In this document: positions 262 through 30,157 of the stretch, piece after piece
How positions within the stretch are numbered: position 1 is the first letter of the stretch
Layout of the letters: the number at the start of each line of letters is the position of its first letter
Virus record (IMG/VR): IMGVR_UViG_2713896901_000010
DNA: 35,122 nt
Source of the DNA: a virus
Lineage: Duplodnaviria > Heunggongvirae > Uroviricota > Caudoviricetes
Strand: one strand, 5' to 3'
Translations under genes and position numbers: made by a program
The notes under the pieces: generated by a model
Database searches by the model: none
What the model was told of the DNA's origin: nothing
The model's input: only the letters and a program-made list of their open reading frames with translations

Positions 262-290
262 TTGAAATTACCAAGTGGAGTGCTTATATT
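262..290 (+). promoter_or_regulatory. sigma70-like promoter TTGAAA-N17-TATATT
   Basis: -35 TTGAAA 262-267, 17-bp spacer, -10 TATATT 285-290; last T of -10 is first T of operator 290-304. Confidence 0.5.
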
Positions 291-304
291 TACCTTTGCG
301 GTAA
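290..304. promoter_or_regulatory. operator dyad TTACC-N5-GGTAA (site A)
   Basis: Perfect 5+5 inverted half-sites ttacc tttgc ggtaa. Confidence 0.6.
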
Positions 305-394
305 ATTTACATCGCACTCCTCTTGTGCCATAGTAATCGGGCACTGGCAAAATCCAGTGTCGGGATTGGTCTCCCGGATTACTAAGTGGCGCAT

Positions 395-417
395 ACCACG
401 CCAGACGTGGTTTTTTT
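395..417 (+). terminator. rho-independent terminator
   Basis: Stem accacg/cgtggt with 5-nt loop followed by T7 run 411-417. Confidence 0.6.
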
Positions 418-575
418 ATGCGTATAGCACAGTCATGCCAGAATTATGGTGGGCTGAATGGGGGTCCGAAAGGACGCCGGTACCACTTAGGCCGGTAAGA
501 CCAACTCCGTTCAGTTCACCACCATCTGATTGGTCTCAGCGGTGGTGATGTAATTCGCTAAGTGGAGACGCCATA

Positions 576-1226
576 ATGAACGCTCAACTCATCCCCGTAT
601 TCAACGGCACTATATCCAACGAAACCGCTCTTCTCGTTAATGCCCGTGATTTACACACTTTCCTCGATGTGGGTAAGCGATTTGCTTCGTGGATTGTCGA
701 ACGAATTGCTGAATATGGTTTCGTTGAAAATCAAGACTTTATGATTATTTCCCAAGTTCGGGAAAAAATAGGCAGAGGCCGTCCTGCAAAAGACTACCAC
801 CTCACCCTCGATACAGCCAAAGAGCTGGCGATGGTCGAGCGTAACGAAAAAGGTCGTCAGGTACGACGCTACTTCATTGAATGCGAGAAACGTTTAAGAC
901 AACAAGAAACAAAAGTGGAGAAGGTCTTGTCAGGCTTCATGCCCGCCATTATGGAGGCGATCAAGCTGGAAGACAAAAAAGAATACAGCGCCCCGCTGAA
1001 GCCCGGCTACCGCAGTCTGATTCATTCTCCGTCTGGTGTTCTCGGCCTGACGGAGAACTCACTGCTGATGAATCTGCTGAACCAGTTACAGGACGACGGG
1101 CACGACGTATCGGGCGCGGCGGCGGAGCTGACAACCATGTTCTGCTACATCGTCGGTGTGAGCAAATGCCTGCGTGATATCCAGACACACGCGGAGTACA
1201 TCAACGACAAGGCAGGATTCTTCTGA
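576..1226 (+). CDS. phage antirepressor, KilAC-type N-terminal domain plus shared C-terminal module
   Basis: ATG 576 with GGAG 9 nt upstream; N-terminal ...DYHLTLDTAKELAMVERNEKGRQVRRYFIECEKR matches the KilA-C/ANT antirepressor signature; last 80 aa identical to the C-terminus of the 2008-2952 product. Confidence 0.8.
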   Translation: MNAQLIPVFNGTISNETALLVNARDLHTFLDVGKRFASWIVERIAEYGFVENQDFMIISQVREKIGRGRPAKDYHLTLDTAKELAMVERNEKGRQVRRYFIECEKRLRQQETKVEKVLSGFMPAIMEAIKLEDKKEYSAPLKPGYRSLIHSPSGVLGLTENSLLMNLLNQLQDDGHDVSGAAAELTTMFCYIVGVSKCLRDIQTHAEYINDKAGFF

Positions 1227-1248
1227 CGGCGGCGGCACAGGGATGTGC
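994..1248. repeat. inverted repeat arm 1 (~255 bp, ~95% identical to reverse complement of 1985-2241)
   Basis: Direct comparison: only a handful of synonymous third-position differences plus one 3-5 nt indel just after the stop codon. Confidence 0.8.
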
Positions 1249-1260
1249 CTTTAAATAATT
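1234..1260 (+). terminator. weak hairpin terminator after antirepressor gene
   Basis: ggcaca-ggga-tgtgcc hairpin followed by tttaaataatt; lies inside the inverted repeat. Confidence 0.35.
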
Positions 1261-1290
1261 CTGTACAGATTGCAGGTGAATAGCGTACTA

Positions 1291-1305
1291 TTACCCCAAA
1301 GGTAA
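1291..1305. promoter_or_regulatory. operator dyad TTACC-N5-GGTAA (site B)
   Basis: ttacc ccaaa ggtaa; abuts a -10-like TACTAT (1286-1291), 14 bp upstream of ATG 1319. Confidence 0.6.
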
Positions 1306-1318
1306 ACCGAGAGTTTAC

Positions 1319-1534
1319 ATGAGGGGGGGAAGCATGGAACTGAACATCATCACATTAATGAAAGCGCTTATTGGCGGTGCAGGAAGTGGCTTTGCTCTTT
1401 CTGGCGGGCTGTCTATGATCATACCTACTTTCACAGTGACGACTGGCGTTGCCTACCTTTTTGCCATTACTGGCGGTCTGGCTATGGCAGGTACTTACAT
1501 TTTAAAAAAAATGAGTTCCGGTAGTGCAGACTGA
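1319..1534 (+). CDS. small glycine-zipper membrane peptide (66-71 aa), function unknown
   Basis: ATG 1319 or ATG 1334 preceded by GAGGGGGGG; product MELNIITLMKALIGG/AGSGFALSGGLSMIIPTFTVTTGVAYLFAITGGLAMAGTYILKK is hydrophobic with repeated small-xxx-small motifs; AT-rich. Confidence 0.55.
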   Translation: MRGGSMELNIITLMKALIGGAGSGFALSGGLSMIIPTFTVTTGVAYLFAITGGLAMAGTYILKKMSSGSAD

Positions 1535-1871
1535 GATCGTACAAGAATCACATTGGTACAATCCACAGACCGCTCAGGAGCTGGCGATCTTTTATTGTAT
1601 CCTTTGCATTGTGTATATAGTAATCCACCTGATATGGGATTTTCTCTCAAAAGAGACTGGTAGGTTTTCTGTTGTTAACCTTCAGTACAAACTGAATGAG
1701 GTATATTCATCAACCACATTCGCAACGAGTGGTTTTTTCCTCGTTATGTTATGCGACATGAATAACCCTCTTAGAACATCAGATGCGTTTATCATACCGC
1801 TTATCTTGGCAATGCTTACTGGATTCATGATATCAATATCCGCAATAGCGCCAAAAAAAGTTAACATTTAA
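1524..1871 (+). CDS. predicted 3-TM membrane protein (start uncertain, GTG 1524)
   Basis: Overlaps stop of upstream gene; three hydrophobic segments; no ATG before residue 75, so the start is unresolved; stop TAA 1869-1871 sits at the foot of a strong terminator. Confidence 0.4.
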   Translation: MQTEIVQESHWYNPQTAQELAIFYCILCIVYIVIHLIWDFLSKETGRFSVVNLQYKLNEVYSSTTFATSGFFLVMLCDMNNPLRTSDAFIIPLILAMLTGFMISISAIAPKKVNI

Positions 1872-1893
1872 GCCCGCACTGCGGGCTTTTTTG
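1871..1893 (+). terminator. rho-independent terminator
   Basis: agcccgc-act-gcgggct hairpin followed by TTTTTT. Confidence 0.75.
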
Positions 1894-1930
1894 TGTCTGC
1901 GGATTCCCGCCCGGGCGGCGGTGGCATTCG

Positions 1931-1956
1931 TTAAAAACAAGGCCGCGAAAGCGGCC
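1931..1956 (-). terminator. rho-independent terminator for the minus-strand ant gene
   Basis: On minus strand GGCCGC-tttc-GCGGCC followed by TTGTTTTT. Confidence 0.6.
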
Positions 1957-1957
1957 T

Positions 1958-1969
1958 GTGACATGTCAC
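1958..1969. repeat. 12-bp perfect palindrome GTGACATGTCAC (copy 1 of 2)
   Basis: Identical 12-mer recurs at 22609-22620; both copies sit just 5' of a minus-strand terminator. Confidence 0.5.
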
Positions 1970-1984
1970 GATAGTTCCGTTTTG

Positions 1985-2241
1985 CACATCCCTGTGCCGC
2001 CGTTCTGTCAGAAGAACCCTGCCTTGTCGTTGATGTACTCCGCGTGGGTCTGGATATCACGCAGGCACTTGCTCACACCGACGATGTAGCAGAACATGGT
2101 GGTCAGCTCCGCCGCCGCGCCCGATACATCGTGCCCGTCGTCCTGTAACTGGTTAAGCAGATTCATCAGCAGTGAGTTCTCCGTCAGGCCGAGAACACCC
2201 GACGGCGAATGAATCAGACTGCGGTAGCCGGGCTTCAGCGG
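1985..2241. repeat. inverted repeat arm 2 (partner of 994-1248)
   Basis: Reverse complement matches 994-1248 at ~95%. Confidence 0.8.
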
Positions 2242-2952
2242 ATAACCATAACATTTTGTCTGTGTTTTAATTGCCTCACGAAGCGCATCTAACATCTTGA
2301 CTGCCACTTCATCATTCTCTGATGCAGATCCAGCAGGGAGATGCTCCCCTTCAAGCGGAACCCGAGCAACAAGAGACAACGCTTCGGCGAATTGATCTTC
2401 ATCAATTTCTTTGTACGAACAGCCAAAATGAGATTTCAGTGACGACCACATGGTGATCATCGCCTTAGCCTGTTTTTCTTTTGGCAGAGACTGACCGCGA
2501 CTCATGACGAGTTGTTTAATGGCTTCCTGCTGTTCAGTGGTTATTTTACCCGGCAGCGCCTTTTTAGCTTTGCGTGGGTTAACCACATGGCCTTTAGTCC
2601 AGTACTCGTAGAGCACATCGTCACACTCTTCCTGATACTGGATTACCTTGTCGCGGATTTCAGGGCGGACTTTGTTAGGGCTGATGGTTTGCAACCAGCC
2701 AGCAAGTTTGCGAAGTGCCAAACAAATAATCTCACGGCGCTGTTCATCCCCAGGAAGCTGCATTGTGATTTTCACAATGCAGGTTTTAAACCGCTGCTTC
2801 ATTTTCGTAAACTGTGAAGCCCAATCCATACCCATGCCTTCAACGATAGGTTTCATTGGGGTGTACGGTTCTCCGTTGTGATTGACAACATAAAGTTCTG
2901 CGCCGTGGAATGGCACGTTGATAGTAGATACCGCTGTTGCTATACTCGCCAT
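2008..2952 (-). CDS. ant: antirepressor Ant (P22 Ant-like N-terminus plus shared C-terminal module)
   Basis: ATG 2952 with AGGA upstream; N-terminus ...INVPFHGAELYVVNHNGEPYTPMKPIVEGMG resembles P22 Ant ...SYVPFNGQQVRTVLIDGEPWF; sits downstream of arc as in P22 immI. Confidence 0.8.
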   Translation of the reverse strand: MASIATAVSTINVPFHGAELYVVNHNGEPYTPMKPIVEGMGMDWASQFTKMKQRFKTCIVKITMQLPGDEQRREIICLALRKLAGWLQTISPNKVRPEIRDKVIQYQEECDDVLYEYWTKGHVVNPRKAKKALPGKITTEQQEAIKQLVMSRGQSLPKEKQAKAMITMWSSLKSHFGCSYKEIDEDQFAEALSLVARVPLEGEHLPAGSASENDEVAVKMLDALREAIKTQTKCYGYPLKPGYRSLIHSPSGVLGLTENSLLMNLLNQLQDDGHDVSGAAAELTTMFCYIVGVSKCLRDIQTHAEYINDKAGFF

Positions 2953-3024
2953 GTCGTTAATTCCTATACGTAGTTTTACGATACTGAAGCCCTGACGGTC
3001 TGGCCACCGTTGGGCTTCGCTGTT

Positions 3025-3192
3025 TTATGCCACGCTATTCTTCTCACCAGTGAGTCCATACACTTTCCTCAGCTGATAGATAATCTCTGTATTGAACTTT
3101 CGGCATTCTTTTTCGCCATTTCTTTCAATAGCTAACTTCACATCGTCCGGAAAACGAACTCGTCGTTGACACATCTCTTTTGCTTTTTGCAT
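3025..3192 (-). CDS. arc: Arc-like ribbon-helix-helix repressor (55 aa)
   Basis: Internal ATG 3192 with AAGGAG at 7-nt spacing; RRVRFPDDVKLAIERNGEKECRKFNTEIIYQL parallels P22 Arc RWPREVLDLVRKVAEENGRSVNSEIYQRV. Confidence 0.75.
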   Translation of the reverse strand: MQKAKEMCQRRVRFPDDVKLAIERNGEKECRKFNTEIIYQLRKVYGLTGEKNSVA

Positions 3193-3206
3193 TTCATATC
3201 TCCTTG

Positions 3207-3266
3207 GCCCCACCGTGGGGCAAAACAATTGTCACACCGTGCGTCATTGATGTCAAGCACACGGTG
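3207..3266. promoter_or_regulatory. divergent arc/mnt control region with three spaced CACCGTG/CACGGTG heptamers
   Basis: caccgtg 3211-3217 (inside palindrome gccccaccgtggggc 3207-3221), caccgtg 3235-3241, cacggtg 3260-3266; spacing 24 and 25 bp. Confidence 0.5.
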
Positions 3267-3312
3267 AGGCATACTTCAATCATTGCAAGTAACTCAATAT
3301 TTGGTGAAGAAC

Positions 3313-3744
3313 ATGAGCAGAGAAGATCCACAACTAAGGATCAGACTTCCCGTTGAAGTAAAAGAAAAAATAGAAATTTCTGCAAAAGCCAATAAGCGAT
3401 CAATGAACGCTGAAATAGTACAACGTCTTGACACCAGCTTTCTGAAAGATATTCATGAAGATGACGTAATTTCTGCTTATGAAGCAAAAATTATTGCAAA
3501 CAATGCACGGCATGAAATATCAAATATTATTTTCAAAAGAACTTTTAATGAAATCAATAAGAAAATAACACTTGGACATACAAGTTTTTATATAAACCTT
3601 AATGACCTTGAACTGGAATCACTTGCAGATAATGATTACCAGATCATCTTTGAAAAAACATTTAATAAGCTCAATGAACTAGGTTACATCATCTGTGAAA
3701 ACTCATGGGATGCAGATGGTTTTGGAATTGAAATACCTGAATAG
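3313..3744 (+). CDS. mnt: Mnt-like RHH repressor with ~60-aa extra C-terminal extension
   Basis: ATG 3313 (table start 3283 is TTG); MSREDPQLRIRLPVEVKEKIEISAKANKRSMNAEIVQRL closely parallels P22 Mnt MARDDPHFNFRMPMEVREKLKFRAEANGRSMNSELLQIV; divergent from arc-ant as in P22. Confidence 0.8.
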   Translation: MSREDPQLRIRLPVEVKEKIEISAKANKRSMNAEIVQRLDTSFLKDIHEDDVISAYEAKIIANNARHEISNIIFKRTFNEINKKITLGHTSFYINLNDLELESLADNDYQIIFEKTFNKLNELGYIICENSWDADGFGIEIPE

Positions 3745-3786
3745 GAAGAACAAAAGGCGTGTACATATTACACGTCTTTAATACAA

Positions 3787-4398
3787 TTGAAAAACGCCAC
3801 ATTACTGATGTATGTTACAACAAGGAGCGATATTTTGAAAACCATATCTATATTAAAGGTTGCATTAGGCGTCGCTATTATTTTGACTCTCTCAATATTG
3901 TTTTATTTTTACCACAAAAAAACTGCTATTGCTCTTGATGGTCACGCGGCAAACTCATTTTTCTCAGAGTACATAGTGCCGCTATCAGGAAGCGGTATAA
4001 CAAATAAATATACTGACTATGACATCAAATATGGAATTGATGATGGGGAGACTATTGCATTACATGTAATCATTAAAAACCTAATGACAGTAAATAAAAA
4101 TACAGACTTCAACGATAAAAATACAATACATCACAACAACAGCAAAACATTAATTTCTTATAGTAGCAACATCTATACGGATAAATACCTAAAATACATC
4201 TCAGAAGATACAATAAAAGCAACCAGCGAAAAGTTAAAAAACATATATTGTGCATCCGGCAGTTTTCACAAATTATCGCCGCAAGAGCGTTTATTCTACG
4301 AAGCAAGAAAACAACGTAAGTCAATAATATTCCATTATTATGCTGATTCAGGGGAGTCACTCATATTTAATATTGGGGTTTCCCCTGAATCATGCTAA
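3787..4398 (+). CDS. membrane-anchored protein of unknown function at the sieA position
   Basis: Most likely start is TTG 3835 (AAGGAG 3822-3827, 7-nt spacer), alternative ATG 3808; one N-terminal TM helix then an Asn/Lys/Tyr-rich domain; very AT-rich. Confidence 0.55.
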   Translation: MKNATLLMYVTTRSDILKTISILKVALGVAIILTLSILFYFYHKKTAIALDGHAANSFFSEYIVPLSGSGITNKYTDYDIKYGIDDGETIALHVIIKNLMTVNKNTDFNDKNTIHHNNSKTLISYSSNIYTDKYLKYISEDTIKATSEKLKNIYCASGSFHKLSPQERLFYEARKQRKSIIFHYYADSGESLIFNIGVSPESC

Positions 4399-4409
4399 AG
4401 GCGTTTAAC

Positions 4410-19357: not shown

Positions 19358-19447
19358 ATCAATGACTCCGTACGCAATTAAATTATTACCAATTTAACCA
19401 CATATGATTTATTTATCGTAGAAGGTTGACATTTGACGCGTGAATTA

Positions 19448-19462
19448 TTACCTTTCAGGTAA
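19448..19462. promoter_or_regulatory. operator dyad TTACC-N5-GGTAA (site C)
   Basis: ttacc tttca ggtaa, with TTGACA at 19426-19431. Confidence 0.5.
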
Positions 19463-19784: not shown

Positions 19785-19861
19785 GTGGCATTAGCTCAGT
19801 TGGACAGAGCAACCGCCTTCTAAGCGGTTGGTCGCAGGTTCGAATCCTGCATGCCACGCCA
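19785..19861 (+). tRNA. tRNA-Arg (anticodon UCU), phage-encoded
   Basis: Manual cloverleaf: acceptor GTGGCAT/ATGCCAC, U8, D-stem GCTC/GAGC with GG in loop, anticodon stem ACCGC/GCGGT, loop CUUCUAA, T-stem GCAGG/CCTGC with TTCGAAT loop, discriminator G, encoded CCA; differs from E. coli argU as I recall it. Confidence 0.9.
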
Positions 19862-19904
19862 GAATCACGCCTAAGGACCGTGATGCCAGAAGTTCCAGGT
19901 GCTT

Positions 19905-19946
19905 GGCGGTGATGGTTTCCCTTGAAGGACTATCACCGCCCTTTTT
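19905..19946 (+). terminator. hairpin terminator downstream of tRNA
   Basis: ggcggtgat...atcaccgcc 9-bp stem, long loop, then CTTTTT. Confidence 0.5.
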
Positions 19947-20418: not shown

Positions 20419-20429
20419 TTTGCTGACCA

Positions 20430-21905
20430 TTATGCATAAGGGTCATAATCCGTTATGGCCCTTCCCTGCTGGCTTTGCTGTCCTGGTATATTTATGCGTT
20501 TCGACACCGGGAAAGCAAACGTCAGCAGTAGCGCATCGCCTTTACCCAGCGAACGCCCAAGACGCTCTTTGATATCTTCCTTCGGTTCGATAACGATTTT
20601 ACCGTCCACACGAACTTTGTACTCTGCCGCCGACAGGTCGTCTGCAGTTTCCTGGTCATCCAGCATGCCGCCCAGCCTCAGCCATGTCTTGCATGAATTG
20701 AACATCTCCCCACGCTTGTTGAGCATCTGCGGGTCAGTAGACGCGCCACCGAACGGAACAAGTTGCCATGTACGACCCCATCCGTCACCGATTGACTTCA
20801 GACCGGTTCCGTAACCGAAGTCGATGAACACCGCGTCAGCCTGGTACTGGTCTTCAAAGTCAGCGATACGCTTCGCCATAATCAGATCGTCAGTGGTCTT
20901 GTTGCCAGTCCACAGCACCTTACTGTGCAGCCCCTGCCTCAGGTATATCACCGCGTCATCAACGCCTGAGTATGCCGGGTCAACGCCGATTATCACCGGA
21001 GCATGTGCAACCTGCACAGCGGTTACCACCCGTTTCATTGCCTCGTCAGTAAGGCCGGTAGGGATAAACTGCAATTCAGATGCATCCGGGAATATGCCGC
21101 GCACACGGATTTTAACGAAGTCGCTGTCTTCCCCGTAGTCATCAACCCATTTCTGCAACTGCTGTTTGTTAGTGCCTTCCACCGTCCGGCTGTCAATCTG
21201 CGCAGTTTTCCAGCGGTGTTTATATTTGCGGAAACATTCGCGGAAACGTCCGGTGTTACGTGTAGGGTTTCCAAACGCCACCCAGATAATCTCAGTGTCT
21301 TCGTCCGTAAGCGCACCCTCAGCAACTTCCCACACCAGATCCGCAATGTTCGACGCTTCATCGAATACCACGATGATGCGTTTGCGCTCGTTGTGTAGTC
21401 CGGCGAATGCCTCAGTGTTGTGCTCAGACCAGGGGATTGCGTCAGCTCGCCACCGCTTGTCGTGCCCAGGGTCATTGCTGTACATCGCGGTAGCGGTACA
21501 GGTAAACCAGTCTTTCGTGATAGCAAGGTTCGACCACTTGATAATTTCCGGCCAGGTCTTCGTTCGTAGCTGGTTGTCGGTGTTGGCGGTCACCACGACC
21601 TTACAATCCTCGCAAGTGGACATGCCCCAGTTGATCAGCATTGAGATGAATGCGGATTTACCAATACCGTGACCAGAAGCGCGTGCCAGCATAAGCGGCT
21701 GATAGCGCGTCTCTGGATTCTGCAGGTGATCACGTATCTCTCGGAACGCATCAGCCTGCCACTGACGTGGGCCGGTAGCATGTGCCAGTTCAGTCCCCTC
21801 TTCCCCCCAAGGGAACGCATAGAGGGCATAGCCAAGCGGATCGTGAGTGAACCCTGCAATATCCTCGATTAACTGCTCTTCAGGAGATAACGCTGTATCT
21901 GTCAC
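20430..21905 (-). CDS. terL: terminase large subunit (491 aa)
   Basis: GTG start overlapping terS stop (GTGA); Walker-A-like ARASGHGIGKS near N-terminus; size and position. Confidence 0.9.
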   Translation of the reverse strand: MTDTALSPEEQLIEDIAGFTHDPLGYALYAFPWGEEGTELAHATGPRQWQADAFREIRDHLQNPETRYQPLMLARASGHGIGKSAFISMLINWGMSTCEDCKVVVTANTDNQLRTKTWPEIIKWSNLAITKDWFTCTATAMYSNDPGHDKRWRADAIPWSEHNTEAFAGLHNERKRIIVVFDEASNIADLVWEVAEGALTDEDTEIIWVAFGNPTRNTGRFRECFRKYKHRWKTAQIDSRTVEGTNKQQLQKWVDDYGEDSDFVKIRVRGIFPDASELQFIPTGLTDEAMKRVVTAVQVAHAPVIIGVDPAYSGVDDAVIYLRQGLHSKVLWTGNKTTDDLIMAKRIADFEDQYQADAVFIDFGYGTGLKSIGDGWGRTWQLVPFGGASTDPQMLNKRGEMFNSCKTWLRLGGMLDDQETADDLSAAEYKVRVDGKIVIEPKEDIKERLGRSLGKGDALLLTFAFPVSKRINIPGQQSQQGRAITDYDPYA

Positions 21906-22498
21906 TGATTGCCATCCTGACGTTCTTTGAGTCGCTTCCTGGCTGCTGCTATGCGATCAGCAATTGTCACACTCACATTAACATCCAGGCGTTCTTTGAA
22001 TGCGTTGACGTCGACGTGCTTACCAATCAGTTCGAGGTTCTTCACCTTGTCAGGCCACTTAATTTTTTTGAGGATTGTCTCTATCGAATCCTCGTTCATG
22101 TTCATGATGGTCGATGACAGATCAAAGCCGCTAAGCGTAGTGCGCCAGATTTTCGGCCACTCGCGGATTGGTTTAAGGCTCCCATCGTCGTTGAGGATGT
22201 CGATCACGTCCATCTGGTCGATCTCCACCAGGCGCATGAGAACGTAATCAGCACTGACGCGCATTCGTTTGTTGCGCTCCTCCATCAACTCGGCAATCCG
22301 TTTCTGAATGCGTTCATCGCGCATCATGACACTGGCTTTAACTGCCGCTGTATTTGGGGAGAATCCTGCGTTAATCGCTGCCTGAGTCTGGTTTTCAGGC
22401 GTTTTGATGTATGACTGGCAATAAGCCTCCTGCATTGCTGTTAGTGGCTTAAATTGCGTTGATTTGCGTTTATAGGTTTTAGGTTCAGCAGGCATCAT
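21902..22498 (-). CDS. terS: terminase small subunit (~197 aa)
   Basis: Immediately upstream of and overlapping terL; basic helical N-terminal region; likely start is the ATG pair 22498/22495 rather than table TTG 22576. Confidence 0.75.
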   Translation of the reverse strand: MMPAEPKTYKRKSTQFKPLTAMQEAYCQSYIKTPENQTQAAINAGFSPNTAAVKASVMMRDERIQKRIAELMEERNKRMRVSADYVLMRLVEIDQMDVIDILNDDGSLKPIREWPKIWRTTLSGFDLSSTIMNMNEDSIETILKKIKWPDKVKNLELIGKHVDVNAFKERLDVNVSVTIADRIAAARKRLKERQDGNQ

Positions 22499-22530
22499 AA
22501 CCACCGTGGTAATAGTTACCGTTGTGGTAA
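22498..22530. promoter_or_regulatory. tandem operator dyads upstream of terS (sites D2 and D1)
   Basis: 22516-22530 ttacc gttgt ggtaa (10/10); 22498-22512 taacc accgt ggtaa (9/10) overlapping the terS start codon and GGTGG RBS. Confidence 0.55.
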
Positions 22531-22540
22531 TAGTACCATG

Positions 22541-22567: not shown

Positions 22568-22608
22568 AGTATTCAAAACACATCAAATTCATCATGCATA
22601 ACCTACTC

Positions 22609-22620
22609 GTGACATGTCAC
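22609..22620. repeat. 12-bp perfect palindrome GTGACATGTCAC (copy 2 of 2)
   Basis: Identical to 1958-1969; overlaps stop codon of 22617-22958. Confidence 0.5.
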
Positions 22621-22958
22621 ACTATTAATTTCGTTTCATGCCAGCCTTTAGTCACCCAGCATTGCGAGTCACCATTGCACGGGCATGAATTAACTGGAAC
22701 TCTCTCGCCGCACTTACCGCAACGTTTTCTGCTGATCGATTTTATACGCCCGTGCACGCGAGCATCATCCTGGCGGATAAGTAACGCAATATACTCACCA
22801 AATTCGTAAGGCACACGCCCGGGGCGACGCGTGGCACAGTTACGCTCCAGCATTTCAATTTCCTGAGCATCAAGCACAATCTCCAGCTTACGTACACCGG
22901 ATGCAGCTTGTCTGGCTCTCTGAGCGGCTTTGCGCTCTGCTGCTGATTTAGCCATCAA
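22617..22958 (-). CDS. hypothetical protein with C-terminal Cys4 cluster (113 aa)
   Basis: AGGTG RBS before ATG pair at 22958; C-terminal CGKCGERVPVNSCPCNG suggests a zinc ribbon. Confidence 0.5.
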   Translation of the reverse strand: MMAKSAAERKAAQRARQAASGVRKLEIVLDAQEIEMLERNCATRRPGRVPYEFGEYIALLIRQDDARVHGRIKSISRKRCGKCGERVPVNSCPCNGDSQCWVTKGWHETKLIV

Positions 22959-24541: not shown

Positions 24542-24542
24542 A

Positions 24543-24842
24543 TCACATCACCCTGAAGCCGTTGCATTTACGTAAAAAATCGCAGATATAGCCCTTCATT
24601 TTTTCGTGCCAATCTCGATCATTCCCATTGCACCAACCATCAGGTGGAGTCCAGTTTTCTATCAGAGCAGCCATTTTCTTTGCTTTCGCCGGAGTAGCTG
24701 TTGCGGTATCGCAGTAATGACGAGTGTCAACCAACGTATCCATACCATCGATATCAAGTACGCAAAACCATGTGTGATTCGGCATTTCAACAGATGGTAT
24801 TTGTTGCCCACGTCGACGTTTATCAATAAGACATACAGTCAT
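24543..24842 (-). CDS. hypothetical protein (99 aa)
   Basis: ORF in nin-like block. Confidence 0.45.
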   Translation of the reverse strand: MTVCLIDKRRRGQQIPSVEMPNHTWFCVLDIDGMDTLVDTRHYCDTATATPAKAKKMAALIENWTPPDGWCNGNDRDWHEKMKGYICDFLRKCNGFRVM

Positions 24843-25042
24843 GGTTCCACCTTCTCTATTTGCTTAAGGCCGTCTCTCACTGCATTAAGTACGCGTTCCA
24901 GATACTGGTATTTCGGGTTTGGTATCGTTGGCCAGTTGGCACACCACGGATCATCACCAAAGAGATTCAGTAGTTTGTTACCGACGCCGAAACAGCAGCA
25001 GCTTTCTTTTACGTCATCGGCGTTTTCCGCCTCGTCCCACAT
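24839..25042 (-). CDS. hypothetical protein (67 aa), possibly the 3' part of a frameshifted gene
   Basis: Frame is open upstream to 25085 and overlaps the end of 25014-25382 by 72 bp. Confidence 0.35.
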   Translation of the reverse strand: MWDEAENADDVKESCCCFGVGNKLLNLFGDDPWCANWPTIPNPKYQYLERVLNAVRDGLKQIEKVEP

Positions 25043-25382
25043 TTCGCGAGCCAGTACGGCGTCGATTTCTCTCTCTTCGTAACTTTATGATTTCTGACTT
25101 CACGAAAAGCAGATTTGCATCGTTGTCATCGTCGACCGTGCTTAGCAGTTGAGGGTCGAAATTGTCGATTAGATAATCGTTGCTAACTCGCTTAATGAAC
25201 GTCTGCACATCATCACCGCCCATAGCAAACCAAGCCGCAGTCCACGCTTTTCCGTAGCAGGTGATGGTGATTCTTCCCTTACCAGGTTCGTAGTTTTCAA
25301 TCATCACTCGAACCGGATCTAGTCGCTCTGCACCGGTTATAACGAATGACAACACATCAATCTTTTCAACCGTCACACTCAC
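25014..25382 (-). CDS. hypothetical protein (122 aa), possibly the 5' part of a frameshifted gene
   Basis: Ends in an Arg-rich tail (RRERNRRRTGSRNVGRGGKRR) that looks like out-of-frame read-through. Confidence 0.45.
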   Translation of the reverse strand: MSVTVEKIDVLSFVITGAERLDPVRVMIENYEPGKGRITITCYGKAWTAAWFAMGGDDVQTFIKRVSNDYLIDNFDPQLLSTVDDDNDANLLFVKSEIIKLRRERNRRRTGSRNVGRGGKRR

Positions 25383-25951
25383 TGGTTGCCTCCTTTGCGA
25401 AGCTCTGCGGCAAAGTCAGTGGCATGTTCACCGAGTAGTTTCCAGTTATCGCGTATATCAGATGCAAATGACTGTTCGGATTTTGAGTTACATTTCTGTG
25501 CAAACATCTCCAATCCCTGCGCCCGCACTTCAGCCAGGCATTTGCGAAACTCGGAAACGTACTGTTCGACGCTCATTCCCCAGCTAAGTGGACATTCATT
25601 GAATGTTTCGCCTTCGTGCTCTTCATCAGGTAACTCTTTGGTAAAGAACTCACGTTCAATGGCGTGGAGTGTGTCAGCAAAACGACGTAAGTTACTCAAA
25701 CCTGTCGTAATGGAGAATTCAGGAGCATCACATCCGACGCCCATCTGCTGATAAACGGCGGTTTTGAAGGCCTTAAGCCCCGCATTCTCCGCCGCCAGCG
25801 CATTAGCACGCACCAGTTGCACTTCCAGTTGCGTTGCCAAATCGCTGATCAGCTTTGCCACACTGCGCATATCAACGGCACAACATTCTGCTTTCAGTTC
25901 CGAAGCCATCTCATGCCCGGCGGCAACTAACCCTTTGATATTACTTTCCAT
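25379..25951 (-). CDS. hypothetical protein (190 aa)
   Basis: ORF beginning a new transcription unit after the HNH terminator. Confidence 0.5.
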   Translation of the reverse strand: MESNIKGLVAAGHEMASELKAECCAVDMRSVAKLISDLATQLEVQLVRANALAAENAGLKAFKTAVYQQMGVGCDAPEFSITTGLSNLRRFADTLHAIEREFFTKELPDEEHEGETFNECPLSWGMSVEQYVSEFRKCLAEVRAQGLEMFAQKCNSKSEQSFASDIRDNWKLLGEHATDFAAELRKGGNQ

Positions 25952-25991
25952 CTTTACCCTCGCTTATCCACATAACTTATTGATAACATTG

Positions 25992-26024
25992 ATAACTAAA
26001 AAGATCGTCGATTCAGGCCGATCT
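25992..26024 (-). terminator. hairpin terminator at the end of the HNH gene
   Basis: AGATCG-11 nt-CGATCT hairpin enclosing the stop codon, then TTTT on the minus strand. Confidence 0.5.
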
Positions 26025-26621
26025 ATTTTTCATCAGTGATTCATAAAACTTTTGCCACTTATGCCGACCGAAATTAGCCTTCGAGTTACAGCTCGAACAA
26101 AGGCAAATAAGGTTCTCCTGACGACAGTCTTGCTTGTCGTAATTGATGTGATGAGTTGTTAGCCTTTTGTCTGTTCCATCACAACCTGGGTTCTGACAAG
26201 TAAAACCATCTCGCTCAATAACCCTCTTGCTCGTTTCTCGGAAATCCCACGGATACGGAAATCTCGATAATCCACCAGACCAGTTTGGATTTCCTTCCCC
26301 CTTCATCAGAGAAGAACGCATTATGTTGGAACACTGTTTCGAGCAGCATTTGTGACGCTTCTCATGACTCAAGAAAACGGAGAACGAAGATCCGCATACG
26401 CAGCATATTTTTAATACTCGCTTTAGTTCCCGATTTACCGTCTTGCCTCGCTGTGAAATTCCTACACACTGAAGTGAGCAGAACCTTGAAGAGGAGTTGG
26501 CTCGCTTAACCTGATATTGCCTGCCACATACGGAGCAAACCTTTTCGATTTTCCCACCCTTCCAATTCGGGTTTTTATCACCGGATACAATCAATCCCGC
26601 AGCATTGGGCTTCTCATTCAT
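26013..26621 (-). CDS. HNH endonuclease with two N-terminal CxxC zinc-finger repeats (202 aa)
   Basis: ...DGFTCQNPGCDGTDKRLTTHHINYDKQDCRQENLICLCSSCNSKAN fits the H-N-H fold; CSVCG...CSLQC and CCVCG...CCSKQC repeats. Confidence 0.7.
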   Translation of the reverse strand: MNEKPNAAGLIVSGDKNPNWKGGKIEKVCSVCGRQYQVKRANSSSRFCSLQCVGISQRGKTVNRELKRVLKICCVCGSSFSVFLSHEKRHKCCSKQCSNIMRSSLMKGEGNPNWSGGLSRFPYPWDFRETSKRVIERDGFTCQNPGCDGTDKRLTTHHINYDKQDCRQENLICLCSSCNSKANFGRHKWQKFYESLMKNRSA

Positions 26622-26971
26622 AGTTCCTCAATCTCCCATCCACCACCGAGCTTTTTAGGTTTTGGATAAGCAACCTGAAAGACAAACGGATAGCTGTCTG
26701 CCGCAACCTTCATCTTGACTCTCGCATCGTCAGTAAAGACTGACTTACTTCCCTTAACGTCCACCATCACCAACTGCCCGTCAGCCAACATCACGGCAAA
26801 ATCTACAGTCAGGAAGCAGTTATCAGCTAACCGCAGCTTGATACCCTCGAATCGATACCAGGCGATTTCCCCTGCACGTTTACGCTGCTCAAGGTGCTGG
26901 CAATACGCAGATTCTGTTTTGTTCATCTGGCCTGTTTTGAGTCGACCAAGAGCCTGTATCTGTTTTCTCAT
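26618..26971 (-). CDS. DUF1064-family protein (117 aa)
   Basis: ...HLEQRKRAGEIAWYRFEGIKLRL...FLTVDFAVMLADGQLVMVDVKG resembles the DUF1064 pattern. Confidence 0.6.
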   Translation of the reverse strand: MRKQIQALGRLKTGQMNKTESAYCQHLEQRKRAGEIAWYRFEGIKLRLADNCFLTVDFAVMLADGQLVMVDVKGSKSVFTDDARVKMKVAADSYPFVFQVAYPKPKKLGGGWEIEEL

Positions 26972-26974
26972 GAT

Positions 26975-26989
26975 TTACCTCTTAGGTAA
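26975..26989. promoter_or_regulatory. operator dyad TTACC-N5-GGTAA (site E1)
   Basis: ttacc tctta ggtaa, 3 nt upstream of ATG 26971; contains the GAGGT RBS on the minus strand. Confidence 0.55.
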
Positions 26990-27017
26990 TTAAAAACCAC
27001 ATAAGACACGAAATCAA
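26989..27017 (-). promoter_or_regulatory. sigma70-like promoter TTGATT-N17-TTTAAT (minus strand)
   Basis: -35 at 27012-27017, -10 at 26989-26994, flanked by operators E1 and E2. Confidence 0.45.
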
Positions 27018-27036
27018 TAGAGTTTAGAATATTTTA

Positions 27037-27051
27037 TTACCCAACAGGTAA
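27037..27051. promoter_or_regulatory. operator dyad TTACC-N5-GGTAA (site E2)
   Basis: ttacc caaca ggtaa. Confidence 0.55.
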
Positions 27052-27060
27052 TTATCAAGA

Positions 27061-27084
27061 CGTAAAAAAAATGCGCTATCGCGC
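27061..27084 (-). terminator. rho-independent terminator after the P-like gene
   Basis: On minus strand GCGC-gata-GCGC followed by A then T8. Confidence 0.55.
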
Positions 27085-27089
27085 TGGTA

Positions 27090-27890
27090 TTACTTGATAA
27101 ATCCTGCCGCCTTTCCCCGCCTGTATTCCTCCATCAGCCACTGAGCCGGTGTTATTCCCCCAAGGGTGGCGGCGTTAGGCATGCACCCGAAACTTCGCCC
27201 TGGTGGGTGGTAAACGTCTCTCCCTGTGTCCGGAGGTGTACTCATGGGTTCTGGCTTTGCCTGTATGCTGATCACCGGATCGGGTATCTGCTGTCCGGAA
27301 GCCACCTTTTTCGCCCAATCATCGAGCAGCCTGCGCGCGTGTTTCTCAACCTCAATCTCGCTAAGCTGGCGCTGATACATTGCACGGCGGGTATCACATA
27401 CGACCCAGTACATAACCGGATGTCGCCACGGGAATCTTTCGGGACCACCAGGATATAAACTTTTTTCCTTGCTGTACCGGTGAAACTCCGCCATCACATC
27501 GTCAATGGTGACGCCAAGAACCATCTTGCTGTCTTTGCACCACTTGATAAATTGCCCTGGCGACGGCCAGAACGGAGATTCACTGGCGCGGGCGTGGCGC
27601 ATACCAGCAGAAACCTGTTCACGGGTTCGGATCCCCCCTTCGGCAAACGCAGCAATCCACTGCTGTTTTGCAGCAACTTCCTGCTCTGGCGTCTTCAGGT
27701 TGGTTACCACTGCCGCCGGAAACAGTTGTTTCAGCTGTTTGAAAAGGGCATCAACAAGCCTCTCTGCTGACATGTTCACCACGTTGTCATTGTTGGTGTA
27801 CTGATGCTCATAACCTGACATGCGAGAAAGGGCTTCTCCGTCACGGTTTTGTATCGCGGTAAAAACGTTGTTCACAAGAAATCCTCCCAT
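27090..27890 (-). CDS. replication protein P-like helicase loader (266 aa)
   Basis: ...VAAKQQWIAAFAEGGIRTREQVSAGMRHARASESPFWPSPGQFIKWCKD parallels lambda P ...RRQWVLAFRENGITTMEQVNAGMRVARRQNRPFLPSPGQFVAWCRE. Confidence 0.8.
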   Translation of the reverse strand: MGGFLVNNVFTAIQNRDGEALSRMSGYEHQYTNNDNVVNMSAERLVDALFKQLKQLFPAAVVTNLKTPEQEVAAKQQWIAAFAEGGIRTREQVSAGMRHARASESPFWPSPGQFIKWCKDSKMVLGVTIDDVMAEFHRYSKEKSLYPGGPERFPWRHPVMYWVVCDTRRAMYQRQLSEIEVEKHARRLLDDWAKKVASGQQIPDPVISIQAKPEPMSTPPDTGRDVYHPPGRSFGCMPNAATLGGITPAQWLMEEYRRGKAAGFIK

Positions 27891-28687
27891 GCTTCAGGGC
27901 TGTTCCAGTGCGGAACGTTGTTATCAGGTAATGTTGATTGCTTCTGTCTGCTAATCTGCAGCCGCCTTGCCAGCTTCTGCTCCCACTGTGCCTGATGGTA
28001 TGCCTTACCCTCAGCCATCCAGTAAATTCTGAACTCTGCAAGTTCCTGTGCCGTTGGCAGAGTGTCCAGGTAGATCCCCTGCAATGAGCTTTTCCGAAGA
28101 AAGTCATCTGATGGCTGCCATTGTTCATGCATGACAAATTTGCCTAATTGCCCTGGCCCACCAGGAGGAACAAAGTTATTCATCACGGCGTTGTTTGCGC
28201 CGGGGTCATGAGGCACAGAATTCCCGGTTTTTGTCCCGCTCTCCCTCTCTTGGTTAAATGACTGGTTATATGACTGGTTCTGGATCCCGTTTTTGGGATC
28301 ATTCAACATCCCGTTTTTGGGATCATTCAACATCCCGTTTTTGGGTATATTCCCGTTTTCGGGAACATTACCGTTTTCGGGTTCATTCCACCCTTCCCGG
28401 TTGCCTTTAATATTCCCGTTTTTGGTTATATTAAGAGAGAAAACCCGCACTCTTTTCGTCGCTCCCTTTCTCTCTCCGGTATCTGAAATAAGCCCCATTT
28501 TCATGAGCGATATGAGCCCGGCCTGCACGGTTTTTTTATTCAGGCAAGTGTCTTTAACGAGGCGTTCTATGCTGGGGTAGCAGAGGTTATCTTCATCGGC
28601 TCTGTCAGCCATCGAGAGCAGTATGAGCTTTAATGACGAGCTACCTGGATCTGTCTCCCAGGCCCAATCTGTTGCATGTCTGCTCAT
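27872..28687 (-). CDS. replication initiator, lambda O-like, with iterons inside the coding sequence (271 aa)
   Basis: N-terminal winged-helix-like region; central PENGNVPENGNIPKNGMLNDPKNGMLNDPKNG encoded by DNA iterons; immediately upstream of P-like gene. Confidence 0.65.
   Translation of the reverse strand: MSRHATDWAWETDPGSSSLKLILLSMADRADEDNLCYPSIERLVKDTCLNKKTVQAGLISLMKMGLISDTGERKGATKRVRVFSLNITKNGNIKGNREGWNEPENGNVPENGNIPKNGMLNDPKNGMLNDPKNGIQNQSYNQSFNQERESGTKTGNSVPHDPGANNAVMNNFVPPGGPGQLGKFVMHEQWQPSDDFLRKSSLQGIYLDTLPTAQELAEFRIYWMAEGKAYHQAQWEQKLARRLQISRQKQSTLPDNNVPHWNSPEAWEDFL
28286..28433. repeat. origin iterons (5-6 tandem units, core CCCGTTTT(T/C)GGG)
   Basis: Two perfect 24-bp units cccgtttttgggatcattcaacat at 28286-28309 and 28310-28333, degenerate units to 28433; direct repeat atgactggtt x2 at 28259-28279. 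Confidence 0.7.
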
Positions 28688-28702
28688 GATTAATCTCCGC
28701 TA

Positions 28703-28903
28703 TCAGCTTGAATGTTGTGGGGAGGAATTAATCATGATCTGCTTAATCTCTGCCCTGATGCGACGGTTTGATTCCATGGTGCACTCAACACAGTGTCCGT
28801 TGTAAACCCAGCGTTCACTGTCATGTCCGTGCTTACATGGTTTTCCGGTGTAGTAGCGTTTAAGCCCGCGCTTTGCGGCATCAATACGTGTAATGATTTC
28901 CAT
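28703..28903 (-). CDS. small Cys/His-rich protein in the cII position (66 aa)
   Basis: Internal ATG 28903 with AGGG upstream; YTGKPCKHGH...GHCVEC; lies between the cro-like terminator and the O-like gene. Confidence 0.45.
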   Translation of the reverse strand: MEIITRIDAAKRGLKRYYTGKPCKHGHDSERWVYNGHCVECTMESNRRIRAEIKQIMINSSPQHSS

Positions 28904-28983
28904 GGTAAGCCCTGTTATTAGTATTGGGATTACGGTTATTTTGTGCTGACACAAAAAAAAGATCAACCAGATTTGGTTTTTTG

Positions 28984-28998
28984 TTACCTTTGAGGTAC
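28984..28998. promoter_or_regulatory. near-perfect operator dyad (site F, 9/10)
   Basis: ttacc tttga ggtac. Confidence 0.35.
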
Positions 28999-29003
28999 GA
29001 ATA

Positions 29004-29031
29004 GATATGAAAAGACCGCCGGATGGCGGTC
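29004..29031 (-). terminator. tR1-like hairpin terminator after the cro-like gene
   Basis: On minus strand GACCGCC-atcc-GGCGGTC followed by TTTTCATAT. Confidence 0.5.
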
Positions 29032-29053
29032 TACAGAGGTTTGTGGCTGGATA

Positions 29054-29284
29054 TCATGAGTAGAAGAAGTATGCCAGTTCTGCTTTTGAGCGCAGCCATT
29101 GTCTTGTTTTACAGGCTTTAAAAAGCCCATTCATCAATACCTTACCTGGCATTTTGCGCTTACCTGTTAAGTGAGTCTGGATATAGTGACTCGTCGTTCC
29201 GGCTTCCTGTGCGAAGGCTTCACGCTCATCCGGAGTAAGTGCAAGCCAGTGCTTTTTGAAATCGAAATGTCCGTTATCGCTCAT
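29054..29284 (-). CDS. Cro-like HTH regulator (76 aa)
   Basis: Divergent from the repressor gene across an operator-rich region; TPDEREAFAQEAGTTSHYIQTHLTGKR has helix-turn-helix character. Confidence 0.55.
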   Translation of the reverse strand: MSDNGHFDFKKHWLALTPDEREAFAQEAGTTSHYIQTHLTGKRKMPGKVLMNGLFKACKTRQWLRSKAELAYFFYS

Positions 29285-29320
29285 AGCTATTGCCTGATAT
29301 TTATTTCAGATAATAAATAT

Positions 29321-29383
29321 TCACCCATAAGGTAACAAAAATCAAGGATAGTTACCTATGAGGTGCATTTACCTGTTGGGTAA
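29321..29383. promoter_or_regulatory. OR-like operator cluster (three dyads)
   Basis: 29321-29335 tcacc cataa ggtaa (9/10); 29352-29366 ttacc tatga ggtgc (8/10); 29369-29383 ttacc tgttg ggtaa (10/10). Confidence 0.6.
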
Positions 29384-29438
29384 TATTGCTTTAAATTGAA
29401 TCATCTACTGATTCATATATGAGGCGATTTTCCAGAAA

Positions 29439-30023
29439 ATGAAAAGTATCCAGGACGTCCGCAGGCAAAATCTCAACGACTTGATCGACCGTGAATTCAA
29501 TGGTGTTCAGACGCGGATGGCAGAAAAACTTGGAACTCAGGCAAATCTGGTAAACCGCTGGGCTCTTGGAAAGAAGGTTATCGGCGACCAGGTTGCGCGA
29601 AAAATTGAAGCTGCCGCCAATAAACCCCGTAACTGGCTTGATATCGATCGCTCGCTTTCTCAGGAAGGTTTTCAGCCTGTCGGCCCAAGCGACATTGGTC
29701 AGCTGGCGGCTCACAACCTGGAACGCTGGATGAGCGAAAGCCGCGACCTTTCAACACAGGGAAAACTTCACCGCGCATCCGGCGTCGCCCAGGTGACAAT
29801 CAGCCGCCTGTTAAACAATGAGGTCAGCGTTTCCATTTCCACCTTGGAGAATGTTGCATCCGCATTCGGGCGTCACGGCTATGAATTACTGATTCACCCG
29901 CACGACCCTGCGACCATCAACTATGACCGCTCGCGCTACGCATTGTTACCCGAAACCGAGAAAGCAAAGATCGAAAGTTACATTGAATTTGTCATCAATC
30001 AGAACGAAAAAAACAAACAATAA
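29439..30023 (+). CDS. CI-like repressor with two HTH motifs and no S24 peptidase domain (194 aa)
   Basis: N-terminal XRE-type HTH (MAEKLGTQANLVNRW) plus second HTH (SGVAQVTISRLLNNEVSVSISTLENVA); no Ser/Lys autoproteolysis domain visible. Confidence 0.7.
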   Translation: MKSIQDVRRQNLNDLIDREFNGVQTRMAEKLGTQANLVNRWALGKKVIGDQVARKIEAAANKPRNWLDIDRSLSQEGFQPVGPSDIGQLAAHNLERWMSESRDLSTQGKLHRASGVAQVTISRLLNNEVSVSISTLENVASAFGRHGYELLIHPHDPATINYDRSRYALLPETEKAKIESYIEFVINQNEKNKQ

Positions 30024-30044
30024 GATCATAGTTTTCAGTAAGTA

Positions 30045-30068
30045 AGCCGCCTTCTGGCGGCTTTTTTA
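30045..30068 (+). terminator. rho-independent terminator after the repressor gene
   Basis: agccgcc-ttct-ggcggct followed by TTTTTT. Confidence 0.8.
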
Positions 30069-30080
30069 TTGCCTGTTCGA

Positions 30081-30095
30081 TTACCTGGTGGGTAA
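30081..30095. promoter_or_regulatory. operator dyad TTACC-N5-GGTAA (site H1)
   Basis: ttacc tggtg ggtaa. Confidence 0.6.
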
Positions 30096-30114
30096 TTTTT
30101 TTAACTCATATCTA

Positions 30115-30143
30115 TTGACATCAAACCAGATACGCATAATTAT
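30115..30143 (+). promoter_or_regulatory. pL-like promoter TTGACA-N17-AATTAT
   Basis: Consensus -35 at 30115-30120; -10 at 30138-30143 whose last T is the first base of operator H2. Confidence 0.55.
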
Positions 30144-30157
30144 TACCTCAACGGTAA
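30143..30157. promoter_or_regulatory. operator dyad TTACC-N5-GGTAA (site H2)
   Basis: ttacc tcaac ggtaa. Confidence 0.6.

Follow-up and report, generated by a model that had tools for sequence, protein, structure and literature searches.

The immunity system of the Salmonella phages SPC32H and epsilon15 (genus Uetakevirus) is built around a lysogeny repressor, Rep, and its antirepressor, Ant. SPC32H Rep has been described as a tetramer binding palindromic DNA sites (PMC9638917), with N-terminal DNA-binding, middle dimerization and C-terminal tetramerization and Ant-binding domains (PMC9986798). Its DNA-binding domains pair across different dimers (PMC9638917, PMC9986798), and the repression mechanism of the Rep family has been called not yet well characterized (PMC9986798). 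For epsilon15, the type phage of its genus, the RefSeq record NC_004775.2 holds seven protein_bind features marked repressor and lysogeny, all of the form ATTACC-N5-GGTAAT, i.e., one each at terS (12–27), the head operon (2931–2947), the ant/tail-fibre region (19895–19911) and the nin-like operon (35906–35922), with a further three beside the repressor gene on its pL side (32479, 32554 and 32616). Here we analyzed the IMG/VR virus record IMGVR_UViG_2713896901_000010, a stretch of 35,122 nucleotides (the window), with regard to a dispersed 15-bp dyad, TTACC-N5-GGTAA. We propose, with a probability of roughly 0.88, that these dyads are operators of the lysogeny repressor Rep (29439–30023) in a Uetakevirus prophage.

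Judged from its sequence, the system of the window is by every feature tested a member of the SPC32H/epsilon15 Rep–Ant immunity system. It shares homologous Rep and Ant proteins, an identical operator core and a matching placement of the sites, including pairs at a 62-bp spacing. It also differs in several respects. Epsilon15, SPC32H and the Klebsiella phage BUCT711 have a third pL operator and a leader terminator, both of which the E. coli lineage lacks. Sites at an isrK/C4/antA unit and a membrane-protein operon are additional in the window, as is a P22-type immI module. Moreover, the seven sites of the epsilon15 record omit the rep/cro operators, which are clear in the window.

The window itself reads as a prophage of the phiV10/TL-2011b type, genus Uetakevirus. 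In alignment it is about 97% identical to phiV10, TL-2011b, PAS61, phiv142-3 and ZX5, podoviruses of or near Uetakevirus in the epsilon15 group, and synteny with phiV10 and TL-2011b spans its whole length, which bears out an earlier note, made from the letters alone, in that it took the window for one phage. The window begins with the start codon of the antirepressor gene (position 1) and ends with that of the integrase gene (35122), and it hence excludes the genes for tail fibre, O-antigen and lysis as well as the promoters of ant and int. Of 5426 complete E. coli genomes, 541 have the immunity region, and many of these are from O157 and other pathogenic strains.

A pattern search of the whole window for the TTACCNNNNNGGTAA dyad, TTACC-N5-GGTAA, gave nine perfect copies, at 290, 1291, 19448, 22516, 26975, 27037, 29369, 30081 and 30143, which are exactly the coordinates given in the earlier note. 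Dinucleotide-preserving shuffles yielded 0.01 copies on average and none of 100 shuffles reached nine; the 0.03 copies estimated before were of the same order of magnitude. Four imperfect dyads carry one (22498, 28984, 29321) or two mismatches (29352), again in agreement with the earlier counts, and each of them adjoins a perfect site or occupies a position kept in relatives. With up to two mismatches allowed, the window is expected to hold about 10.6 matches, and a two-mismatch match at 29160, inside the cro-like open reading frame (ORF), was excluded as probably due to chance. All 13 sites have an identical ACC...GGT core and tolerate single changes at the outer TT/AA positions, while their spacers are unconstrained except that T is favored beside the left half-site. 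When all 5-mer dyads with gaps of 0–12 were counted, TTACC-N5 was the commonest in the window, with nine copies compared with three for the runner-up, and it ranked first in each of the four genomes counted (window, phiV10, epsilon15, SPC32H). No perfect dyad occurred in a 50-kb control stretch of the E. coli K-12 chromosome. On this result and on the 0.01 copies expected in the window we reject a host-factor or chance origin of the dyads.

All 13 sites lie wholly within non-coding DNA, which makes up 6.7% of the window according to a gene map that combines its ORF list with the annotation of relatives. That the nine perfect sites should all be non-coding by chance has a probability of about 3e-11. 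At terS this holds only if the gene starts at the ATG at 22495 and not at the upstream TTG at 22576. From the ATG the product has 198 amino acids and is so annotated in epsilon15, ZX5 and TL-2011b; the phiV10 record places the start at the TTG 22576. The statement that every site is intergenic thus stands, and the check for dyads in unrelated E. coli DNA or in coding regions turned up none among the 50 kb of K-12 and the 13 sites.

The repressor candidate is a protein of 194 amino acids encoded on the plus strand (29439–30023). Its residues 1–190 align with residues 2–197 of SPC32H Rep (PDB 5D50_A, E=4e-42), and residues 89–190 align with PDB 5D4Z. It is 100% identical to phiV10 p40 and to ZX5 ORF21 and only about 42% identical to its Salmonella counterpart. 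Alignments of 5 and of 16 homologs showed it to be conserved end to end, and the helix NLVNRW in its N-terminal part is invariant in the genus. When ORF21 was overexpressed in ZX5, free phage disappeared and the mRNAs of holin and endolysin fell by more than 99.9% (PMC9782041).

Pfam gives only helix-turn-helix (HTH) families for Rep, with an HTH_3 match at residues 106–147 and no Peptidase_S24. The earlier note had described a dimeric, double-HTH reader. An N-terminal HTH domain does bind DNA in the published descriptions, but the second HTH is the middle dimerization domain and not a second DNA reader, and the dimer has to give way to a tetramer. As the likeliest reader of the dyads the same product was well chosen, given its homology to SPC32H Rep, its identity with ZX5 ORF21 and the epsilon15 annotation. 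From the homologs we infer physical binding in which the N-terminal HTH domains would read the two 5-bp half-sites, 10 bp apart from centre to centre. With its two pairs of DNA-binding domains, a Rep tetramer would hold two operators at once.

Release of Rep is predicted to run via Ant. The ORF at 1–258 (plus strand, 85 amino acids) encodes an SPC32H-type antirepressor that matches PDB 5D50_E, "Anti-repressor protein," with E=2e-46 over 83 residues. The ant gene of phiV10 has a strong LexA box, CTGTGTATTTATACAG, about 20 nucleotides 5' of its ATG (phiV10 20822–20837), a position just beyond the left edge of the window; a LexA box before ant has likewise been reported for SPC32H. Upon induction Ant, which is LexA-controlled in relatives, would strip the Rep tetramer from the DNA and so release all units together. 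Farther upstream of phiV10 ant than the LexA box we also observed a degenerate Rep-like site, TTACCTTTCAGGTGA.

Each relative that we examined, from E. coli phages to a Serratia prophage, had the dyad at corresponding positions. We found eight perfect sites in phiV10, 11 in epsilon15, ten at the same places in SPC32H, from which Rep and Ant have been crystallized, ten in ZX5 (four more with one mismatch), nine in Tyrion from Enterobacter (six more with one mismatch) and nine in BUCT711 (four more with one mismatch). A 16-kb uncultured contig whose Rep is 55% identical held six perfect sites, and a 20-kb Serratia prophage with 54% identical Rep held seven. In the site lists of ten genomes and long loci the terS, head/tRNA, nin-like and rep/cro positions and those on the pL side of rep match. 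Moreover, in the five regions that were aligned (pL-like, nin-like, terS, head/tRNA and rep/cro), half-sites and promoter hexamers stand out as invariant islands in diverged DNA.

Spacers behave quite differently from half-sites. A scan of viral contigs with a Rep alignment returned an IMG/VR set of 73 loci. All of them had 100% identical Rep, so that the set was of no use for divergence and served for spacer variation. Half-sites were unchanged across these 73 otherwise near-identical loci, whereas two operators, at locus positions 600 and 3643, had 16 and 13 spacer sequences, respectively; the pL-like distal operator 30081 has 13 spacers between invariant half-sites. Where an operator lies over a transcription start or ribosome-binding site, its spacer is conserved. 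Among the ten genomes and long loci, 89 perfect sites had 64 distinct spacers. Fixed half-sites with free spacers fit a protein that reads two half-sites base by base, and not an RNA stem.

Every dyad is, however, able to fold, and those at 26975 and 22498 hold a Shine-Dalgarno sequence and abut a start codon. The dyad could thus act as RNA, i.e., as a 5-bp hairpin masking ribosome-binding sites or marking sites of processing, instead of as a DNA operator. We reject this possibility, whose probability we consider negligible. The hairpins are weak (-2.6 to -3.5 kcal/mol), and several sites (27037, 29321 and 30081, for example) precede the predicted start of the promoter that they overlap. Beside the 89 perfect sites, 33 of 34 imperfect neighboring sites have no compensatory change and would break a stem. 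Also, the stem sequence is invariant all the way from E. coli to Serratia, which agrees better with base-specific contacts by a protein than with pairing.

Divergent from rep, on the minus strand, lies a gene for a Cro-like small regulator of 76 amino acids (29054–29284; phrog_35, "transcriptional repressor"), which matches phiV10 p41 and epsilon15 gp39 by position and contains a segment, AGTTSHYIQTHLT, invariant in five genomes. Between the two genes there is a tripartite operator region (29321–29383). Its first site (29321–29335, one mismatch) lies inside the spacer of the cro promoter, the -35 of which is a conserved TTGATT (29345–29340). The second site (29352–29366) carries the two mismatches, and the third, perfect site (29369–29383) overlaps the -35 of a candidate rep promoter, TTTACC-18-TAAATT. 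The three sites and the spacings of 31 and 17 bp between them are kept in seven genomes.

On the other side of rep, a pL-like distal operator (30081–30095) follows the rep terminator (30044–30063) and precedes a T-tract. The proximal operator (30143–30157) lies at +1 of a promoter at 30115–30143 (TTGACA-17-AATTAT, score 10/12); -35, -10 and dyad are invariant in six genomes. Judged by this arrangement, the proximal site would control the leftward early operon (30177–33868) with recET, AlpA-like, PerC-like and methylase genes. Divergent repressor and cro genes with a three-site region between them and a separate pair at the leftward early promoter resemble CI/Cro of phage lambda. Unlike in lambda, Rep is devoid of a RecA-stimulated S24 autocleavage domain, induction proceeds via an antirepressor and operators occur far outside the immunity region. 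No N- or Q-family protein was detected among the regulator candidates scanned.

At the nin-like operon the first operator (27037–27051) fills the spacer of the minus-strand promoter TTGATA-16-TAAAAT (27058–27031, score 10/12), and its epsilon15 counterpart is the annotated site 35906–35922. A second operator (26975–26989) covers the Shine-Dalgarno sequence of a DUF1064 gene and ends three nucleotides before its ATG (26971, minus strand). At terS the first operator (22516–22530) meets a minus-strand extended -10, TGgTACTAT (22538–22530), that ends on the first T of the dyad and is kept in Tyrion, ZX5, a further relative, L088, and epsilon15 (TGtTACTAT); here the epsilon15 counterpart is the repressor-binding feature 12–27. 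The second terS operator (22498–22512, one mismatch) contains the ribosome-binding site and ends two nucleotides before the terS ATG (22495, minus strand).

The perfect operator at 290–304 lies at +1 of the promoter 262–290 (TTGAAA-17-TATATT, score 10/12), which leads into an isrK-like RNA (341–417), a C4-like antisense RNA (442–526) and an AntA antirepressor gene (576–1226, E=8e-28). Rfam scores for the two RNAs on the plus strand were 65.5 bits for isrK, an Hfq-binding RNA, and 61.2 bits for C4 compared with a threshold of 45; the isrK match is closed by a terminator-like hairpin (395–411). With isrK, C4 and AntA behind it, this Rep-controlled promoter would drive a small-RNA/antirepressor unit like immI of phage P1. 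P1 has C1 operators dispersed over its genome, including Op51 before the immI c4-icd-ant operon. These are asymmetric 17-bp sites, and C1 is monomeric and unrelated to Rep. The window is like P1 in having a single repressor and dispersed operators, one of them (290) before a C4 RNA and antirepressor (AntA) unit, but its sites are 15-bp perfect dyads and its repressor is of the HTH_3/XRE type described as a tetramer. Pfam and PHROG matches of the window proteins included no C1 homolog. With symmetric operators and an unrelated repressor, the system does not belong to the P1 C1 family; control in the style of P1, as the earlier note had put it, applies to the dispersal of operators, the C4/antirepressor unit included, and not to C1 or its asymmetric sites.

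A further operator (1291–1305) is found at +1 of a weak promoter (1262–1291, TGTACA-18-TACTAT) upstream of genes for two small hydrophobic proteins (1319–1534 and 1524–1871), with counterparts in ZX5 (978) and TL-2011b. The operator at 19448–19462 overlaps the -10 of a plus-strand promoter (19426–19454, TTGACA-17-TACCTT). This promoter points to a tRNA-Arg gene (19785–19861) and a gp66-like gene and not to the head genes. On its other side the site is followed, about 90 bp downstream, by the minus-strand head operon (19357). In an alignment of seven genomes TTGAC is invariant, and TTGACA, the dyad and a T in second place of the spacer, i.e., T6 of the -10, are nearly so; epsilon15 has an annotated repressor-binding counterpart (2931–2947). 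An operator over the tRNA-Arg promoter would leave the tRNA silent in the lysogen and expressed upon induction. The tRNA, encoded on the plus strand downstream of the operator-overlapped promoter, has the anticodon TCT. The remaining single operator (28984–28998, one mismatch) lies just past the cro terminator (29032–29013) and about 60 bp upstream of a candidate start of the replication operon that was read by hand (TTGATC-17-CAAAAT). Its counterparts in ZX5 (14207) and Tyrion (35365) have one mismatch each, and its position suggests a role at the replication operon.

Operators thus lie at +1, in promoter spacers, over a -35, inside a -10, over ribosome-binding sites or about 62 bp upstream. 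The three best sigma-70 matches overlapping sites in the scanned regions score 10/12 each, and every one of them either borders on an operator or contains one. According to the earlier note, a -10-like hexamer ends on the dyad's first T six times, which it took for the geometry of repression at +1. We find it at 290, 30143, 1291 (weak) and 22516 (minus strand) and not at 19448, 22498 or 26975, i.e., it is true of about four sites, with heterogeneous placement at the others. Bound Rep would block RNA polymerase where -35, spacer, -10 or start overlaps an operator, and the promoters so blocked would be those of cro, the leftward early operon, the nin-like operon, isrK/C4/antA, the membrane operon, the tRNA-Arg unit and, via its extended -10, terS. 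Sites over ribosome-binding sites or past terminators are probably second anchors of pairs, or roadblocks.

Several operators come in pairs of fixed spacing. A distance of exactly 62 bp separates the operators of the pL-like pair (30081/30143) and likewise those of the nin-like pair (26975/27037). Both pairs keep it in phiV10, epsilon15, SPC32H, ZX5, Tyrion and TL-2011b; in BUCT711 the nin-like pair does. The nin-like spacing was found in eight of the ten genomes and long loci, and among the 73 loci it was 62 bp in every pair of site positions tallied, though the absolute position moves by up to 50 bp. In these pairs one operator is upstream of or inside the promoter and its partner at +1 or over the ribosome-binding site. 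Two different promoters hence have the same spacing in common, while intervening sequence, spacers and absolute position drift. The terS sites are 18 bp apart, and their tandem arrangement is kept in phiV10, ZX5, Tyrion, epsilon15, TL-2011b and L088.

In published descriptions of Rep the two pairs of middle domains are about 100 Å apart, and the tetramerization domain resembles that of looping regulators (PMC9638917, PMC9986798). The distance between the domain pairs bears on whether one tetramer could span an operator pair. It is a reasonable inference that one Rep tetramer would hold two operators, which would explain the fixed pairs at 62 bp (pL-like, nin-like) and at 17–18 bp (terS, rep/cro). 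We suggest more tentatively, and at less than even odds, that a single tetramer clamps both operators of a 62-bp pair and closes the promoter into a very small DNA loop or wrap, and that early, accessory and packaging genes are gated directly without a temporal cascade. Rco of plasmid pLS20 is a tetrameric looping repressor with a p53-like tetramerization domain (PMC9986798). Like Rep, it combines N-terminal DNA-binding and C-terminal tetramerization domains and has an antirepressor partner, and its operator regions bracket promoters, at 75 bp in pLS20 compared with 62 bp in the window. In contrast to Rep, whose looping is putative and whose sites are single palindromes, Rco needs several tetramers on arrays of direct 8-bp repeats.

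A number of observations weigh against Rep as the reader of all these sites or against a strict pairing rule. The link between Rep and the sites rests on the epsilon15 annotation, homology and secondary descriptions. Among Rep homologs the putative recognition helix occurs as NLVNRW, NLINRW, NLVSRW and NLISRW, and the dyad stays constant. In a covariation test with Rep homologs down to 52% identity, two contigs with altered helices had an unchanged dyad, which left the test without power and Rep and the Cro-like protein inseparable. At terS there is no -35, so that the promoter consists of the extended -10 only, and no strong promoter was found near 28984. As for the spacing, the pL-like pair of BUCT711 is 63 bp apart and that of Serratia 75–76 bp, a distance that also separates the extra third pL-side operator of epsilon15 and SPC32H from its neighbor; in two compact nin-like promoters with operators in the spacer and at +1 it is 18 bp.

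With the dyad constant while the recognition helix of Rep changes, it might be read mainly by another phage protein, namely the Cro-like protein or the product of 22617–22958. Across the genus the Cro-like protein is also the better conserved one, with 58–84% identity compared with 43–78% for Rep. We regard this as very improbable, though not quite as remote as the RNA hairpin. In repressor/Cro switches operators are normally common to both proteins, so this would not exclude Rep. The epsilon15 record names the repressor as the bound moiety, SPC32H Rep is described as a tetramer on palindromic DNA sites, and a Rep identical to that of the window suffices to silence lytic genes in ZX5. We consider Rep to be the principal reader, with the Cro-like protein probably reading the operators of Rep too during lytic growth.

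According to the earlier note, the dyad heads nearly every transcription unit. We inferred twelve units with promoters inside the window, ten of which carry at least one site, i.e., isrK/C4/antA, the membrane-protein operon, tRNA, head (with the site on the upstream side), terS-terL, nin-like, replication, cro, rep and pL-like. No dyads were found in the P22-type immI module (2008–3744) or in the neighboring gene 3787–4398, so the statement needs these two exceptions. That one repressor has operators at the head of most units agrees with the kinds of position given by the repressor-binding features of epsilon15. The immI module consists, from its named products, of an Ant gene (2008–2952, minus strand), an Rfam sar RNA (2954–3021, plus), an Arc-like gene (3025–3228, minus) and a gene for a Mnt-like ribbon-helix-helix (RHH) protein (3283–3744, plus), after which comes the unnamed gene 3787–4398. 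Residues 232–312 at the C-terminus of the immI Ant match phrog_450, to which the small SPC32H-type Ant belongs; this domain is thus encoded twice in the window, which has three antirepressor-type genes in all.

The earlier note also concluded from the dispersed operators that there was no antitermination cascade, and this is not established by the sequence. Terminators precede several site-bearing units, and both a regulator gene (22617–22958) and a PerC-like activator are present. Rep might then directly repress early and accessory promoters only and the late genes (terS-terL and head-tail) might be turned on mainly by a separate regulator, for which the product of 22617–22958 is a candidate, with a cascade in place and the terS, head and 28984 sites acting as roadblocks or loop anchors. 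Several site-bearing units indeed come after the rho-independent terminator of the preceding unit, terS has no -35 and the head operon no convincing promoter. The gene 22617–22958 (minus strand, 113 amino acids) is conserved, lies directly upstream of terS where lambda has Q and is a PHROG "transcriptional regulator." Its product has a basic N-terminus, a predicted RHH-like strand-helix-helix and a Cys-rich C-terminus (CxxC...CxC...C). However, it had no Pfam, NCBIfam or PDB match, an AlphaFold model made with 20 close homologs reached a pLDDT (predicted local distance difference test) of only 58, and a role as antiterminator or activator is hypothetical; ten selected window proteins, including regulator candidates, had no Pfam match to an antiterminator family.

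Sequence elements other than the dyad bear on the same question. A palindrome, GTGACATGTCAC, overlaps the stop codon of 22617–22958 and a predicted promoter (22620–22591) that runs into a terminator (22567–22550). Upstream of the head gene there is a conserved non-operator block with a hybrid element, TTACC-N5-AACCACATATG (19386–19406, plus strand), that combines one Rep half-site with a different right half. This element lies exactly 62 bp from operator 19448 within a block of about 60 bp (19358–19447) that is near-invariant from E. coli to Serratia. The exact pattern occurs in the full genomes or long loci of six of nine relatives, and phiV10, ZX5 and TL-2011b have an extra copy 5' of the tail-fibre gene. 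It may be a distal operator that has degenerated, or else belong to a late-promoter element.

At terS, by comparison, the conserved extended -10 TGnTACTAT abuts the operator in the geometry seen at the pL-like promoter, and the annotators of epsilon15 likewise put repressor sites at terS and the head operon. We therefore judge a restriction of Rep to early and accessory promoters rather unlikely. Direct repression of late genes by Rep is plausible because the extended -10 at terS is conserved.

Two observations concern other repeated elements. The palindrome GTGACATGTCAC occurs in the window at 22609–22620 and 1958–1969, in the relative L002 at 2142, 19517 and 39612, at corresponding places in the other genomes, and in general one to four times per genome or locus. 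Early-right, terS-terL and tail operons have it at or close to their ends, and wherever the surroundings were checked a terminator follows directly. Several copies supply, with their TGA, the stop codon of the final gene, and the copy at 22609–22620 also forms the -35 of the predicted promoter. No literature match was found for it. The replication-initiator gene (27872–28687, minus strand) contains iteron-like tandem repeats (28251–28389), i.e., 2.6 copies of a 24-bp unit that holds a small dyad, TCCCGTTTTTGGGA, and then an 18-bp variant in 3.2 copies. A replication origin probably lies here, within the initiator gene, as in lambda.

Taken together, our results support the earlier interpretation as essentially right, with corrections as to the tetramer, the operator geometry, the units without sites and the cascade. 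The dyad set is already known, since it is annotated in epsilon15 and the structure of the repressor has been solved, while literature text searches for the motif string gave nothing relevant. Our general understanding of phage regulation is unchanged, because motif, repressor and antirepressor had been described for epsilon15 and SPC32H. We modestly add the rep/cro operators, the varied promoter geometries, the 62-bp pairing and the hypervariable spacers, and we provide a complete site map for the phiV10/TL-2011b lineage, which the phiV10, TL-2011b and ZX5 records lack. As phiV10 and most other records are without such a map, it is useful in annotating prophages, in predicting lysogen-silent genes and in designing Rep-controlled expression switches. 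For the biology of this very common prophage family, the operator set defines the specificity of immunity and the circuit of induction.

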